From NCBI GenBank assembly GCA_037137535.1, contig JBAXKC010000050.1, positions 1-16,035 on the forward strand: a stretch of 16,035 bases of DNA. The letters run 5' to 3'. The translations under genes were made by a program, and so were the position numbers. Below the pieces are notes generated by a model. The model made no database searches and was not told where the DNA came from. It saw nothing but the letters and a program-made list of their open reading frames with translations. The stretch comes from a bacterium (GTDB lineage Bacteria; Cyanobacteriota; Vampirovibrionia; Gastranaerophilales; JBAXKC01). Numbering within the stretch: position 1 is the first letter of the stretch; every line of letters begins with the position of its first letter. Below, piece after piece: positions 203 through 13,912 of this stretch.

Positions 203-2896
203 CTAGCTAACTCCAAAACGCTTAAAGAACCACATTTTAACGAACTGGGTAAGGATAGCGTAAGTTATCATCATAAGTGTTAAAAGGACAAAGTACAGCT
301 TAGGAAGTGCAACAAAGCCTAATGCACTTGCTAAAGGCGAGAACGGAAGCCATAATGCTATTGAAACAACGATAATTGTTGTTAGCATCATCGGTAAACT
401 CGCTCTGCTCTGAATAAAAGGTATTTTCGTTGTTCTAATAACATGAATGATAATCGATTGCGATAATAAAGACTCTACAAACCAACCTGTGTGGAATAAT
501 GCCGGGTTTTTCCACGAATGGAAAACGTATAACATCATGAAGAAGGTTGCATAGTCGAAGATTGAGCTTATCGGACCTATAAACATCATAAATTTCTTAA
601 TATTATCTATATTCCATTGTCTAGGGTTTCTTAAGAACTCTTTATCCACGTCATCAGTAGGTATTACGGTCTGCGACATATCATAAAGAAGATTGTTTGT
701 TAAGATTTGAATTGGTAGCATAGGCAGGAATGGCAAGAAAAAACTTGCTCCTATAACGCTGAACATATTGCCAAAATTGGAACTTGCCCCCATGCGGACG
801 TATTTTATTATGTTTCCAAAAACCTTTCTACCTTGAACAACGCCTTTTTCAAGCACCAAAAGATTTTTCTCCAATAAAATTATATCTGCGGACTCTTTTG
901 CAATATCTACAGCTGTATCGACTGAAATTCCAACATCAGCCGCCTTCAGAGCCGGAGCATCGTTTATGCCGTCGCCTAAGAATCCAACTACATGATTTTT
1001 ACGGTGTAAAGCTTTTACAATCTGCTCTTTATGTGATGGGGATAATTTTGCAAATATAGTAGTGGTTTCTGCAACTTCTGCAAGCTCATCATCAGTCATA
1101 GAATCAATATCATGACCTAAAACTACTTTATCATAAGGCAAGCCAACCTCTTTGCAGACTTTTCTTGTTACTGCATCGTTATCGCCCGTTAATATTTTTA
1201 CAGAAACTCCATGATTATTTAAAAGTTTAATAGCTTGTGCAGCTGACTCTTTTGGTGGGTCAAGGAAAGCTAAAAAACCGGCTATTGTTAAATCATGTTC
1301 ATCTTTTAAAGTATAAACGTTTCTATCTGTGGGCATTTCTTTATATGCAACTGCTATAACCCTAAAGCCATCTTCATTGAGGGATTTTACCACGTTTTTA
1401 GCTTTTTCAACGTCAGTTTCTTCTAGGCTTAAAGTTTCACCGTTTATTTCGACTTTCCTACTTATCTCAAAAAGCTCTTCTACTGCACCTTTACAGATTA
1501 GCAAGTGCTTATTGTTCTGCTCATTAACGATTACTGACATTCTTTTTCTAACAAAATCAAAGGGTAACTCGTCTATTATCTTGAAATTATTATCAATATA
1601 TCTGTCTTTATTGAGTTCTGCATGTTCCAAAACCGCAATATCAAGTAAATTCTTCAATCCTGTCTGATAATAACTGTTTATATAGCCCATAGTAAGGACA
1701 TTATCATTATGAAATCCGTAAAAATCAACGTGACGCTCAAGAATAATTTTATCTTGTGTTAAAGTTCCTGTTTTGTCAGAGCATAACACGTCCATTGCTC
1801 CAAAATTCTGAATGGAATTAAGCTTTTTTACAATTACTTTGCTTTTAGACATCTCCAACGCACCTTTTGCAAGGTTTACCGTAACAATCATCGGCAACAT
1901 CTCGGGAGTTAACCCCACGACGACTGCAATTGCAAACAGTAAGGATTCAAACCAGTTGCCTTTACTGAAACCATTGATAAAAAAGACCATAGGAGCCATT
2001 ACAAGCATAAAACGAATCATCAGCCACGCAAAACCGTTAATTCCTTTTTCAAAACTTGTTTGCTCGCGTTTTTTTGATAATTCAAGGGCAATTTTGCCGA
2101 AATAAGTATTATTTCCTGTTAAAATAACCACAGCAAAGGCAGTACCGCTTATAACAGTGCTTCCCATATAACATATATTCTGAAACTCAAGAGCTCCTTG
2201 ACTTTGGTCTTTTTCTTTTACAGCAATCTTTTCAACAGGCATAGCTTCGCCTGTTAAAGCGGCTTGAGCAATAAATAAATCCTTAGCACTTAATATTCTT
2301 ACATCCGCAGGAATAATATCACCTGCCGAAAGTCGAATAATATCACCCGGAACAAGATCCTGAAGCGGAATTTCAAAATTTTCTGAAACCAACTCTTCAA
2401 ATTCATCATTTACAATTTCTTCTTCAAGTATTTTGCGTTGTCTTATTGTTGTAGCGGTTGTATTGACCATTTCACGCAATTTTTCAGCCGCCTGATTGGA
2501 ACGATATTCCTGCGAAAAGGTTAAAAACACACTCACCAGAACCATTAAAAAAATTACTGTAGCGGCTTTTATATCTCCAATTGAACAAGAAACCAGTGAT
2601 AAAGTTAGTAATAAGATATTTAACGGATTTATAAACGTCTTAAGTAGCTCAGTAACAGCATTTTTAGGCTTTTCATGGCTGATTACGTTTAATCCGTATT
2701 CTTTAACCCTATCGTTAACTTCCAGCTCAGACAGTCCATTCAGAGTTGTATCAAAAAACCTTAAAACAAATTCTGTATTACTTTTAGCTGATAACTGCAA
2801 TACTTCATTAATATATAAAGTTCGGTCAGCTTCTTTTTTAGTCTTTTTATAATTTTTAAAAGTGTTTGATAACACTTCGAAAACTTGATTTTTCAT
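203..2896 (-). CDS. mgtA: Magnesium-translocating P-type ATPase (P3B, MgtA/MgtB family)
   Basis: 897 aa with DKTGTLT phosphorylation motif, TGEA actuator, PEMLP, KGA, TGD and GDGINDAP motifs, plus MgtA-typical MGASSNFGNMFS and NLLYD. RBS AGAAGG at 2905-2910. Confidence 0.95.
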   Translation of the reverse strand: MKNQVFEVLSNTFKNYKKTKKEADRTLYINEVLQLSAKSNTEFVLRFFDTTLNGLSELEVNDRVKEYGLNVISHEKPKNAVTELLKTFINPLNILLLTLSLVSCSIGDIKAATVIFLMVLVSVFLTFSQEYRSNQAAEKLREMVNTTATTIRQRKILEEEIVNDEFEELVSENFEIPLQDLVPGDIIRLSAGDIIPADVRILSAKDLFIAQAALTGEAMPVEKIAVKEKDQSQGALEFQNICYMGSTVISGTAFAVVILTGNNTYFGKIALELSKKREQTSFEKGINGFAWLMIRFMLVMAPMVFFINGFSKGNWFESLLFAIAVVVGLTPEMLPMIVTVNLAKGALEMSKSKVIVKKLNSIQNFGAMDVLCSDKTGTLTQDKIILERHVDFYGFHNDNVLTMGYINSYYQTGLKNLLDIAVLEHAELNKDRYIDNNFKIIDELPFDFVRKRMSVIVNEQNNKHLLICKGAVEELFEISRKVEINGETLSLEETDVEKAKNVVKSLNEDGFRVIAVAYKEMPTDRNVYTLKDEHDLTIAGFLAFLDPPKESAAQAIKLLNNHGVSVKILTGDNDAVTRKVCKEVGLPYDKVVLGHDIDSMTDDELAEVAETTTIFAKLSPSHKEQIVKALHRKNHVVGFLGDGINDAPALKAADVGISVDTAVDIAKESADIILLEKNLLVLEKGVVQGRKVFGNIIKYVRMGASSNFGNMFSVIGASFFLPFLPMLPIQILTNNLLYDMSQTVIPTDDVDKEFLRNPRQWNIDNIKKFMMFIGPISSIFDYATFFMMLYVFHSWKNPALFHTGWFVESLLSQSIIIHVIRTTKIPFIQSRASLPMMLTTIIVVSIALWLPFSPLASALGFVALPKLYFVLLTLMMITYAILTQFVKMWFFKRFGVS

Positions 2897-2903
2897 AATT
2901 GTA

Positions 2904-2983
2904 ACCTTCTTATCAAATAAAAATTTATAATTTGGTGAGAAGGTCTATATTAACGGGTATTTATAGAATCTACATCACCAAAT
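2904..2983 (-). promoter_or_regulatory. Predicted translational attenuator of mgtA (mutually exclusive hairpins)
   Basis: On the mRNA, ACCUUCU (2944-2938) is complementary to the mgtA RBS AGAAGGU (2910-2904). Alternatively AUUUGGUGA (2983-2975, end of the leader ORF) pairs perfectly with UCACCAAAU (2938-2930), and UCUAUA (2967-2962) with UAUAGA (2949-2944), which would disrupt the RBS-sequestering stem. Confidence 0.65.
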
Positions 2984-3022
2984 AGTTATTAAACATATAA
3001 AACTACTCGCCTCGGGGTCCAT
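2975..3022 (-). CDS. 15-aa MgtL-like leader peptide MDPEASSFICLITIW
   Basis: Translated by hand: ATG GAC CCC GAG GCG AGT AGT TTT ATA TGT TTA ATA ACT ATT TGG TGA. RBS AAGGAAG (3034-3028) lies 5 nt upstream. The MDPE start resembles enterobacterial MgtL (MDPEP/MEPDP). The stop lies 78 nt upstream of the mgtA start. Confidence 0.7.
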   Translation of the reverse strand: MDPEASSFICLITIW

Positions 3023-3129
3023 AAATACTTCCTTTCTTGATATTTTAACTGATTGACATCCTTAACTCCATGATACTCCATCAAAAATGCTGTAAAGATA
3101 AGTTTTGTAAAGTGTTTTTAGTGTTTTGT

Positions 3130-3338
3130 TCGTTGCTTGATGGTTTCGATGTCTAAAGCCATCGACTCTCTTTTTATTTTTTGAAAAATAAAAAGAGTGC
3201 AAAAACAAAAAAAACATAGTAATTTTGACCGCTACTGTTTTCTTTTCTTACTTTTTGAGTTGTTTAACACATAATAATTTTTGAGAAAAAGGCAAACCTC
3301 TCGTGGATGGTGGTTCTTTGGTTTTTTTTATGAAAACT
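3130..3338 (-). repeat. Dispersed structured repeat, copy A
   Basis: Reverse complement reads ...CCAAAGAACCACC...GGTTTGCCTTTTTCTC...ACTCAAAAAGTAAGAAAAGAAAACAGTAGCGGTC...CTCTTTTTATTTTTCAAAAAAATAAAAAGAGAGTCGATGGCTTTAGACATCGAAACCATCAAGCAACGA, colinear with copies B-G. Confidence 0.9.
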
Positions 3339-3356
3339 ATCAAAACGATTCAATAA

Positions 3357-3391
3357 AAAAATCTTGAGTTTAAAGACAACTCAAGATTTTT
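3357..3391 (-). terminator. Intrinsic terminator of the 86-aa gene
   Basis: Perfect 14-bp inverted repeat AAAAATCTTGAGTT-N7-AACTCAAGATTTTT, ~20 nt after the stop codon. Confidence 0.75.
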
Positions 3392-3412
3392 AATTTTTTT
3401 TTAATAAATTAT

Positions 3413-3673
3413 TTAAGCTATTAAATCAAGTCCGAATTTTGAATTAGAAGGCTCATTTGCACCTGAAATATCATCCACTATACCTTTAAAGAAAGATTTT
3501 AAAGGGTTAGCTCCATAAGTATCAGACTCAAGGTTTAATCTCTCAATATCTACATCAATATCATCATTCTCCAAAACAACAGGGTTTAATAGATTCTCCT
3601 CAGAAGCAGAGTTTCTTTTGAATGCTACATTATTATTTATATTATTAAATGATGGAATATTAAAAAGTTTCAT
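3413..3673 (-). CDS. Hypothetical small acidic protein (86 aa)
   Basis: Strong RBS AAAGGAG upstream of the ATG and its own terminator. N-terminus is N-rich with PSF/VAF. No recognisable domain. Confidence 0.7.
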   Translation of the reverse strand: MKLFNIPSFNNINNNVAFKRNSASEENLLNPVVLENDDIDVDIERLNLESDTYGANPLKSFFKGIVDDISGANEPSNSKFGLDLIA

Positions 3674-3920
3674 TATTTTTCTCCTTTATTTGAAACGAAA
3701 GTTAAATCCCCCTTGAAATACTAATATTTCAAGGAAAAATACTTATTCCGCCTTTGTAATTATGTTTACAAAAGCATTTAAGTAAATTATATAGTTAGAC
3801 GTTCCTTTCAAATGTACAAACAGTATTTGTAATTTGATGGTTAGATTATTAAGTGTAACCTTTACACATTTATAAGGAACAAAAAATTATTATATACCCT
3901 TAATTCTGATTCTCAATTGG

Positions 3921-6135: not shown

Positions 6136-6396
6136 ACTTTGTAAAAATTTCAATTAAGAACCACCCTAAGTCGATCGGTTTGCTTCTTTTCTCAAAATTA
6201 TATTATGTAAAACAACTCAAAGAGTAAGAAAAGAAGCCAGTAGCGGTCAAGAACAGCAATGTTTTTGTTCCCTTTTTATTTTTCAAAAAAAAGGGAGTCA
6301 AGGGCTTTAGTCATAGAAACCATTGAGTAACTACCACATTTTATAAGTTAAATGCACTCACCGATTAGAAGATACTGAAACAAGTTCAGCATGAAG
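6136..6396 (+). repeat. Dispersed structured repeat, copy B, with terminal REP-like palindrome (6371-6396)
   Basis: CGGTTTGCTTCTTTTCTC...ACTCAAAGAGTAAGAAAAGAAGCCAGTAGCGGTC...CCCTTTTT...AAAAAGGGAGTC, then GATACTGAAACAAGTTCAGCATGA. Confidence 0.9.
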
Positions 6397-9664: not shown

Positions 9665-9926
9665 AGTTTTCGCAAAAGAAAAAAACTAAGCCACACAACC
9701 CACATGCGGTTTGCTTCTTTTCTCAAGAATTATATTGTATAAATCAGCTCAAAGGGTAAGAAAAGAAGCCAGTAGCGGTCAGAGCTGTAATGTTTTTGCT
9801 TCCTTTTTTTTGAAAAATAAAAAGGAAGTTGATGGCTTCAGACATCTAAACCGTATAGCAACGAGGATAATATACTGGTGAAAACTTAATAATTTAGGCG
9901 ATGCTGAACTTGTTTCAGAATGACGG
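9665..9926 (+). repeat. Dispersed structured repeat, copy D, with terminal REP-like palindrome (9900-9926)
   Basis: AGTTTTCGCAAAAGAAAAAAAC...GCGGTTTGCTTCTTTTCTCAAGAATTAT...AAGAAAAGAAGCCAGTAGCGGTC...CTTCCTTTTT...AAAAAGGAAG...CAACGAGGATAAT...GATGCTGAACTTGTTTCAGAATGACGG. Confidence 0.9.
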
Positions 9927-12835: not shown

Positions 12836-12995
12836 ATTGTTTTGTGCAAAACAACTCAAAGATTAAGAAAAGAAGCTAGTAGCGGTCAGAGCTGCTATGT
12901 TTTTGCTTCCCTTTTATTTTTCAAAAAATAAAAGGGAGTCGATGGCTTCAGGCATCGACTCCCTACAACAACTAAGAGTATTTACAGGTTAATAC
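12836..12995 (+). repeat. Dispersed structured repeat, copy E (5'-truncated)
   Basis: TGTGCAAAACAACTCAAAGATTAAGAAAAGAAGCTAGTAGCGGTCAGAGCTGCTATGTTTTTGCTTCCCTTTTATTTTTCAAAAAATAAAAGGGAGTCGATGGCTTCAGGCATCGA. It lacks the 5' arm of hairpin 1 and the terminal palindrome. Confidence 0.88.
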
Positions 12996-13641: not shown

Positions 13642-13912
13642 TATTTTGTAAAAACTTCAACCAAAGACCCACCACTCACGAGCGGTTTGCTTCTTTTTTC
13701 GAAAATGAGTTTGTGTAAAACAGCTCAAAGAGTATGAAAAGAAGCTAGTAGCGGTCAAGAAGCGCCATGTTTTTATTTTTGCTAATTTTTTATTTTTCGA
13801 AAAATAAAAAGTTAGTCGATGGCTTTAGACAAAGAAATCATTAAGCAACGAGGATAATTTATTTGTGAAAACACATGGTTGAAGAGATGCTGAATCAAGT
13901 TCAGCATGACGG
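13642..13912 (+). repeat. Dispersed structured repeat, copy F, with terminal REP-like palindrome (13886-13912)
   Basis: CCAAAGACCCACC...GCGGTTTGCTTCTTTT...GAAAAGAAGCTAGTAGCGGTC...CTAATTTTTTATTTTTCGAAAAATAAAAAGTTAGTCGATGGCTTTAGAC...CAACGAGGATAAT...GATGCTGAATCAAGTTCAGCATGACGG. Confidence 0.9.

Follow-up and report, generated by a model that had tools for sequence, protein, structure and literature searches.

A candidate leader peptide with an MgtL-like start and a predicted Shine-Dalgarno switch upstream of mgtA in an uncultured Gastranaerophilales bacterium

The mgtA leader peptide MgtL is known from Escherichia coli and Salmonella, where it is described as a device that acts at the level of transcription through Rho. 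The EPDP sequence that follows its initiator methionine is reported to destabilise ribosomes within the peptide's first six residues, and more so at low Mg2+ (10.1101/2021.02.02.429294), a condition under which translation of MgtL is said to abort or pause (10.1101/2021.02.02.429294; PMC11282234). More generally, early acidic residues that are adjacent or one apart are described as stalling or dissociating ribosomes, with DPEE given as the minimal EttA-dependent motif (PMC11282234), and a survey of intrinsic ribosome destabilization (IRD) is reported to have used four D, E or P residues among the first six as its rule (10.1101/2021.02.02.429294). CorL, the leader peptide of corA, is described as having a single proline and as being translated in inverse relation to expression of the transporter (PMC11552253), and both MgtL and CorL reportedly act via Rho-dependent termination (PMC11282234; PMC11552253). 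A literature search, conducted mostly at the level of titles and abstracts and excluding supplements, retrieved no report of a leader peptide of the MgtL type before mgtA outside the enterics. Here we describe a short upstream open reading frame (uORF) that precedes mgtA in a 16,035-nt stretch of DNA (referred to as the window, to whose whole length all positions below refer) from contig JBAXKC010000050.1 of assembly GCA_037137535.1 (Gastranaerophilales, JBAXKC01; the genome is referred to as G000).

Two further types of leader are relevant for comparison. The attenuators of erm and cat genes have a four-segment leader with a hairpin between segments 1 and 2 and another between segments 3 and 4 that contains the downstream Shine-Dalgarno (SD) sequence, while many low-GC bacteria use the M-box (ykoK) riboswitch (RF00380) to control their genes for Mg2+ transporters. 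Stalling on SecM is described as exposing the ribosome binding site (RBS) of secA. In window positions 2600-3700, neither the Magnesium-II RNA (RF01056) nor the M-box yielded a match at E<=10, and RF01056 recovered the E. coli K-12 leader as a positive control with 125.8 bits at a gathering score of 40. The 22 weak Rfam matches to positions 2600-3700 were rejected as candidates, none of them being at its gathering score (the best, SpR14 on the opposite strand, scored 31.7 bits versus 50), and no match at gathering score, M-box included, was obtained in 20 orthologue loci.

The uORF comprises 15 codons on the minus strand (2975-3022, with its ATG at 3022-3020 and its TGA at 2977-2975) and encodes MDPEASSFICLITIW. 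It is preceded on the same strand by the SD sequence AAAGGAAG (3028-3035), in which AGGA begins at –11, and is separated by 78 nt from an open reading frame (ORF) of 897 aa on the minus strand (203-2896) with Pfam P-type ATPase domains. Scoring 1173.2 bits with the TIGR01524 equivalog model, whose cut-off is 610.75, the latter is a Mg-translocating P-type ATPase, and the gene downstream is indeed mgtA. The mgtA SD, AGAAGGU (2904-2910, minus strand), has its AAGG beginning at –12. According to crude genome-wide gene calls (2540 ORFs covering 86% of G000), on which all statistics on SDs, codons and uORFs are based, SD use in this genome is strong, with an AGGA peak at –11 to –13 that spans the SDs of both the uORF and mgtA, and with –11 as the modal AGGA position (165/2534 genes). 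The 15-codon frame with a good RBS that a first-pass annotation had proposed is therefore present, with its SD at the peak spacing of the genome.

The start of the peptide is unusual in both residues and codons. Three of its first six residues (MDPEAS) are D, E or P, the single proline of the whole peptide being among them, and the peptide ends in a hydrophobic C-terminal half, FICLITIW. Each of codons 2-5 is rare in G000, with synonymous shares of 0.22 (GAC), 0.08 (CCC), 0.17 (GAG) and 0.08 (GCG), and only 130 of 369,355 intergenic positions carry a 15-mer as GC-rich as this patch. Since the CCCC/GAGG patch is largely unpaired in the minimum free energy (MFE) fold, base pairing fails to explain it. 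By analogy, M-D-P-E resembles the ribosome-destabilising EPDP motif of MgtL, and DPEA can be set beside the DPEE given as the minimal EttA-dependent motif, so that the peptide may act in an MgtL-like manner at the sensor step. With no match in Rfam and a single proline, however, this leader does not belong to the MgtL/Magnesium-II family of enterobacteria. The first-pass annotation had called it an MgtL analogue, of which the acidic/proline start and the SD-led uORF before mgtA stand; homology to MgtL is not supported. Separately, an AUG-UAG start-stop pair (UGAUGUAG) overlaps the uORF stop at 2975-2970 on the minus strand.

The region between the uORF and mgtA is predicted to hide the mgtA SD. 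In MFE folds, a hairpin at 2903-2945 on the minus strand (referred to as sequestor hairpin) consists of an outer stem (2945-2938/2910-2903), formed between GACCUUCU (2945-2938) and AGAAGGUU (2910-2903), the region of the mgtA SD, and an inner stem (2934-2930/2918-2914). The hairpin alone amounts to –11.4 kcal/mol and its outer-stem duplex to –9.2 kcal/mol, and the mgtA SD is paired with a probability of 0.98-0.99 in the predicted fold of the bare leader. The pairing of ACCUUCU (2944-2938) with the mgtA RBS AGAAGGU (2910-2904), noted earlier from the sequence, was thus recovered as an inverted repeat as well as in the MFE folds. Also upheld was the pairing claimed for the end of the uORF, the last two sense codons and stop of which, AUUUGGUGA (2975-2983, minus strand; anti-sequestor arm), are 100% complementary over 9 nt to UCACCAAAU (2930-2938, minus strand; anti-sequestor target) within the sequestor hairpin's 5′ half, with a duplex energy of –9.9 kcal/mol.

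Folding of the bare leader yielded three elements, two of which were absent from the first-pass annotation. The first is an 11-bp helix enclosing the uORF AUG, formed in the bare MFE fold on the minus strand between a 5′ arm at 3018-3028 (which includes the AUG) and a 3′ arm at 2957-2967 that is 91% complementary to it (duplex 3028-3018/2967-2957, –9.7 kcal/mol). The second is a local hairpin in the MFE fold in which uORF codons 5-8 (2998-3009, minus strand) pair with 2991-2979 and so hold AUUUGG. The third is the SD hairpin itself.

Based on these modelled pairings, our tentative reading is that the 228-nt leader may be a leader-peptide translational attenuator that joins an MgtL-like sensor motif to an output of the erm/cat/SecM type. 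The leader would comprise four segments, namely segment 1 (3009-2998), segment 2 (2991-2975, with the anti-sequestor arm at its 3′ end), segment 3 (2945-2930) and segment 4 (2918-2903, holding the mgtA SD). In the bare RNA, segments 1 and 2 as well as segments 3 and 4 would be paired, leaving the mgtA SD hidden (OFF state), and a ribosome that finishes the uORF would cover segment 2 while the 3:4 hairpin forms, which again would be OFF. A ribosome paused on M-D-P-E, with its rare codons GAC-CCC-GAG-GCG, would instead cover segment 1 and free segment 2, which could then pair with segment 3 via AUUUGGUGA/UCACCAAAU, loosen the 3:4 hairpin and expose the SD (ON state). Low Mg2+ would act by prolonging this early pause. 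In this scheme we infer transcription and translation of the uORF, a pause of ribosomes at D-P-E here, Mg2+ as the signal and an opening of the SD by the 9-bp duplex.

The energetics of this scheme were examined by folding the leader with the footprint of a ribosome masked, using nested-structure thermodynamics that places kinetics and pseudoknots outside the model. In the bare RNA the OFF fold (–33.6 kcal/mol) is far below the ON fold (–22.5 kcal/mol), and forcing the 9-bp alternative costs 11 kcal/mol. With a ribosome at the stop codon (mask 2995-2963) the SD is paired with a probability of 0.99 and the alternative pairing has a probability of 0.00, bearing out the earlier claim that a ribosome at the leader stop leaves the RBS sequestered. 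Segment 1 is covered by a ribosome with its P site at codons 3-5, as judged from the mask positions. With the P site on codon 3 (mask 3031-3001), the ON fold (–17.4 kcal/mol) lies 0.8 kcal/mol above the OFF fold (–18.2 kcal/mol) and both are about isoenergetic, the alternative pairing having a probability of 0.28 and the SD being paired with a probability of 0.76. With the ribosome shifted to codon 5 (mask 3025-2995) the ON fold becomes the MFE (–18.7 kcal/mol). The masked folds go in the direction proposed for a stall at D-P-E, with the SD still mostly paired at codon 3. As modelled, the layout of the leader fits the physiology, in that smooth or absent translation of the uORF would give OFF and an early-held ribosome would give ON.

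How readily such an arrangement might arise by chance was estimated within G000. uORFs of 5-50 codons with an SD and an ATG were found in 76 of 1541 leaders, and the antisense control yielded 65, suggesting that most of these uORFs are noise. A sequence start with at least three D, E or P residues, including a P, among the first six was seen in only 1 of 84 sense uORFs, namely the uORF at 3022-2975. Among 7202 intergenic ATGs with four or more sense codons after them, this loose rule picked out 54, while three consecutive D/E/P residues occurred at eight and an M[DE]P[DE] start at one, which is again the uORF at 3022-2975. About 0.6 D/E/P-rich uORFs are expected genome-wide, and simple arithmetic then puts the chance of having one before the single mgtA at about 4e-4, a value that is post hoc. 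The SD hairpin's 5′ arm of 21 nt was also compared with dinucleotide shuffles of the 115 nt upstream of it. A perfect complement of at least 9 bp appeared in 14 of 2000 shuffles and a duplex of equally good energy in 89 of 2000. Of 200 shuffles of the mgtA leader, 198 folded less well than the leader as a whole (z –2.57). What this analysis shows is the elements in the sequence, how rare they are and the energetics predicted for them.

Comparison with relatives was restricted by the isolation of this genome. No other member of the family of G000 occurs among the 41 relatives compared, and an MgtA match was obtained in 7 of 401 genomes of the order, the order-level orthologues (G016, G019, G021, G023, G039 and G041) being 42-59% identical. 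Searches of genome contigs and metagenome contigs yielded two mgtA loci with at most 50% identity and six with at most 51% identity, respectively. The order is dominated by one family with genomes of ~1.6-2.2 Mb, in which MgtA was found in 0 of 367, and the named proteins nearest to MgtA of G000 (~60% identity) are from Betaproteobacteria.

Some of these distant loci have features of their own. In G019 (L044/L003), a 23-codon SD-led uORF, MGKAPEPFCQYRLLKIKKGILFK, overlaps or ends on the GTG start of mgtA, its CCCUUUU being paired with AAAAGGG, the SD of mgtA. The uORF lies within a ~70-nt insertion that is missing in G041 and G039. This uORF (MGKAPEPFCQ...) was rejected as a homologue and as evidence of conservation, as it is missing in these two congeners and the leader structure is ordinary (z –0.74). 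All three congeners of genus g15 (L039, L040 and L044) share a ~25-nt stretch, TTAAACA.GTGTT.AATTTAAT.AG, some 90-130 nt upstream of mgtA, which may be an operator or promoter element. L047 and L049 (G501 and G615) share a conserved 26-codon uORF (MNPQLSTFWSL...) that overlaps the start of mgtA in a different frame, and the likely SD is covered by a CUCCA...UGGAG hairpin.

Acidic or proline-rich uORFs were also sought before mgtA in other phyla. In a second phylum, in which MgtA was present in 44 of 301 genomes, some mgtA loci have D/E/P-rich uORFs with an SD and an ATG. The uORF of L084 (G924), MEPDSRYSPNSDFVPRRCVTEGMFMSVPPR, is SD-led, runs from ~1299 to 1391 in the oriented locus, ends 61 nt before mgtA and starts with MEPD, so that its first four residues are the same as those of E. 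coli MgtL in a genome of another phylum. The L084 leader is very structured (z –3.73), with the mgtA SD paired at 0.97-0.99. L080 (G896) has the SD-led uORF MPSDSPDFPAPEPGTHNPAGLPAPALSR 48 nt before the mgtA start, and a 17-residue uORF peptide, MDKPP[LF]L[FL]TIN[SG]LKSTA, is kept in three genomes, at L100 (G650), L103 (G824) and L109 (G884), the first two of which are related genomes and the last of which falls outside the 66 loci counted. In a third phylum, with MgtA in 33 of 301 genomes and 30 loci examined, 0 of 18 sense uORFs were D/E/P-rich. Pooling the 96 mgtA loci of three phyla gave a D/E/P-rich N terminus in 5 of 51 sense and 1 of 37 antisense uORFs. In a small number of genomes outside the enterics, acidic or proline-rich uORFs do precede mgtA, and the pooled counts are suggestive without being significant.

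Several observations count against an attenuator in this leader. In neither the six order-level nor the 29 phylum-level mgtA leaders is the uORF conserved. Identity to these orthologues reaches 59% at most, and 64% is the highest value for any non-self MgtA in a search of 5.8 billion proteins, so that all relatives found are too distant for covariation of the peptide or the stems to be followed. The enrichment of 5 versus 1 in the pooled loci is small and not significant, two of the five being from related genomes, and L084 was rejected as a mechanistic twin because its SD remains paired under early-stall masks. With three motif residues and one proline, the peptide start reaches three of six D/E/P residues and so falls below the IRD rule of four. 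The feature was moreover picked after inspection, which makes the p-values optimistic, and sequestration of the mgtA SD is unexceptional in itself, mgtA ranking 118 of 1294 genes.

The folds themselves raise further difficulties, some of which the first-pass annotation had missed. The 11-bp helix keeps the AUG of the uORF buried at equilibrium. The ON fold is never strongly favoured, given the anti-sequestor probability of 0.28 at a codon-3 stall. Because the bare RNA folds OFF, ribosome drop-off alone, which is the IRD outcome reported for MgtL, would not give ON but would return the RNA to OFF, and the model would therefore need a pause or kinetic trapping during transcription. In addition, the 9-bp target and the RBS-pairing outer stem overlap by only 1 nt, so that the 9-bp duplex and the SD stem could coexist as an H-type pseudoknot, with no clean two-state switch. 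Finally, the locus is present as DNA contigs in public runs, five of which contain part of the stretch; in the four that were examined, the contigs leave positions 2804-3071 of the leader uncovered, which speaks neither for nor against its transcription.

In the main rival explanation, the uORF is a chance frame in a structured 5′ untranslated region whose SD-hiding hairpin alone lowers or tunes translation of mgtA. The hairpin might then be sensitive to cations or temperature, or be the target of a protein or small RNA, and the GC-rich patch might have another function. Such a chance ORF agrees with the near equality of sense (76) and antisense (65) uORFs among the 1541 leaders, with a hairpin that hides the SD in every modelled state save early stall, with the buried AUG, with the failure to find the uORF in any orthologue examined and with the lack of RNA contigs over 2804-3071 in the four public runs. 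It would, however, require that several things coincide independently in the genome's single mgtA leader: an optimal SD, the unique M[DE]P[DE] start (1/7202), four consecutive rare codons and a 9-bp complement (14/2000 shuffles) placed exactly at the uORF stop. Moreover, the CCCC/GAGG patch, being unpaired in the MFE fold, is left unexplained by secondary structure. Given these coincidences, we regard a chance frame as rather unlikely, while still taking it as the foremost competitor of the attenuator.

A second rival accepts a real leader peptide, but has it act on premature termination (Rho-dependent or intrinsic) or on mRNA decay rather than on access to the SD. This would agree with the Rho-dependent termination through which MgtL and CorL are described to work, with an ON fold that is only marginally favoured in the SD-switch model and with the U-rich stretch that follows the alternative 9-bp hairpin. 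Yet a scan between the uORF and mgtA returned no terminator-like site on the minus strand, the 78-nt AT-rich gap has no visible C-rich rut-like tract and there is no similarity to Magnesium-II RNA; we regard this mode of action as improbable. Small membrane peptides do regulate Mg2+ transporters in enterobacteria, but the idea that the 15-residue peptide is a trans-acting small protein (e.g. a hydrophobic pump regulator) instead of a cis sensor is highly improbable despite its hydrophobic half FICLITIW, as a membrane cannot be spanned by a peptide of 15 residues of which about nine are hydrophobic, there is no conservation in orthologue leaders and the overlap of the uORF stop with the alternative pairing points to a role in cis.

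The wider locus was mapped as well. Toward the gene, the region upstream of mgtA consists of the terminator of the preceding gene (3391-3357), a repeat (3325-3125) and a unique stretch of 228 nt (3124-2897), the repeat being the upstream boundary of the unique mgtA leader. This dispersed intergenic repeat (3125-3325) is ~200 nt long with a palindromic terminator-like core, in which a terminator-like site (3146-3165) is joined to a T run, and it has 58 blastn matches on 19 contigs of G000. Further copies in the window lie near 6210-6290, 9718-9852, 12849-12958 and 13659-13851, and contigs from metagenome runs are ~90% alike to the repeat before diverging into unlike sequence. No second copy of the leader (2880-3124) was found within G000.

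With respect to expression, a standard promoter scan (spacers of 16-18 nt) returned nothing on the minus strand upstream of the uORF. A script scan that allowed spacers of 15-19 nt yielded the candidate promoter TTTACA-15 nt-TATCAT (3070-3096, minus strand), which has 10 of 12 consensus matches and a short spacer. Further upstream, an 86-aa ORF on the minus strand (3413-3673) has no Pfam or NCBIfam match, and the only RNA-library contig at the locus (3569-3752) overlies this upstream gene. The genome measures 2.95 Mb with 31% GC and contains this mgtA as its sole MgtA-type gene (one match genome-wide) and also one CorA; MgtE was not detected in it.

If the attenuator works as proposed, it would imply that a minimal D-P-E motif suffices for sensing Mg2+, that the sensor principle of MgtL can be coupled to a different output, namely SD unmasking, and that small unannotated leader peptides control cation transport in lineages seen only in metagenomes. 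As a part of some 150 nt, it would furthermore be compact and testable in vitro. We consider it plausible that an MgtL-like sensor step is new here in being coupled to a translation-level output outside the enterics. The broader proposition, that sensing of Mg2+ via the behaviour of the ribosome on an acidic/proline tripeptide after the start arose repeatedly and was here wired to mgtA initiation by an erm-like SD switch instead of Rho, in an uncultured freshwater bacterium that is unique at the family level, appears doubtful to us. If true, and taken together with the uORFs of L084, L080 and L100/L103/L109, it would make destabilisation of the ribosome by the nascent chain a recurrent Mg2+ sensor that crosses phyla and extends beyond the enterobacteria. 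Should the uORF be a chance ORF, the case would illustrate how far internal statistics reach without comparative data.

Among the known systems, CorL-corA shares with this locus a uORF in the leader of a Mg2+ transporter gene and a single N-terminal proline, as CorL is described (PMC11552253). CorL nevertheless regulates corA through Rho, and the corA leader of G000 itself has no comparable uORF.

The comparison with MgtL is closer at the sensor and looser at the output. In both cases mgtA is immediately preceded by a short SD-led ORF, an acidic/proline motif follows the initiator methionine (MEPDPT in E. coli, MDPEAS here) and, as far as the logic of MgtL is described, smooth translation would give OFF while impaired early elongation at low Mg2+ would give ON. 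The E. coli K-12 peptide, however, is 17 residues long and has four prolines, with 140 nt from its stop to mgtA, whereas the peptide described here has 15 residues and one proline, lies 78 nt from mgtA and has no similarity past residue 4, and its leader does not match RF01056 at E<=10. The output differs as well, being predicted SD sequestration here and Rho-dependent termination for MgtL, and as modelled the bare RNA is OFF, so that ON would require a stalled instead of a dropped ribosome.

It is in this output that the locus resembles the erm, cat and SecM systems. The signal would differ from these, being Mg2+ or ribosome stability instead of an antibiotic or a pulling force, and the switch is predicted to be thermodynamically weak. 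The architecture as modelled is nonetheless theirs, with a leader ORF followed through by two hairpins, 1:2 and 3:4, the latter of which hides the downstream SD, and with an alternative pairing (a perfect 9-bp duplex) between the 3′ part of the leader ORF and the 5′ arm of the sequestor. As in erm and cat, a stall on segment 1 would in the modelled folds let segments 2 and 3 pair and thereby free the SD.

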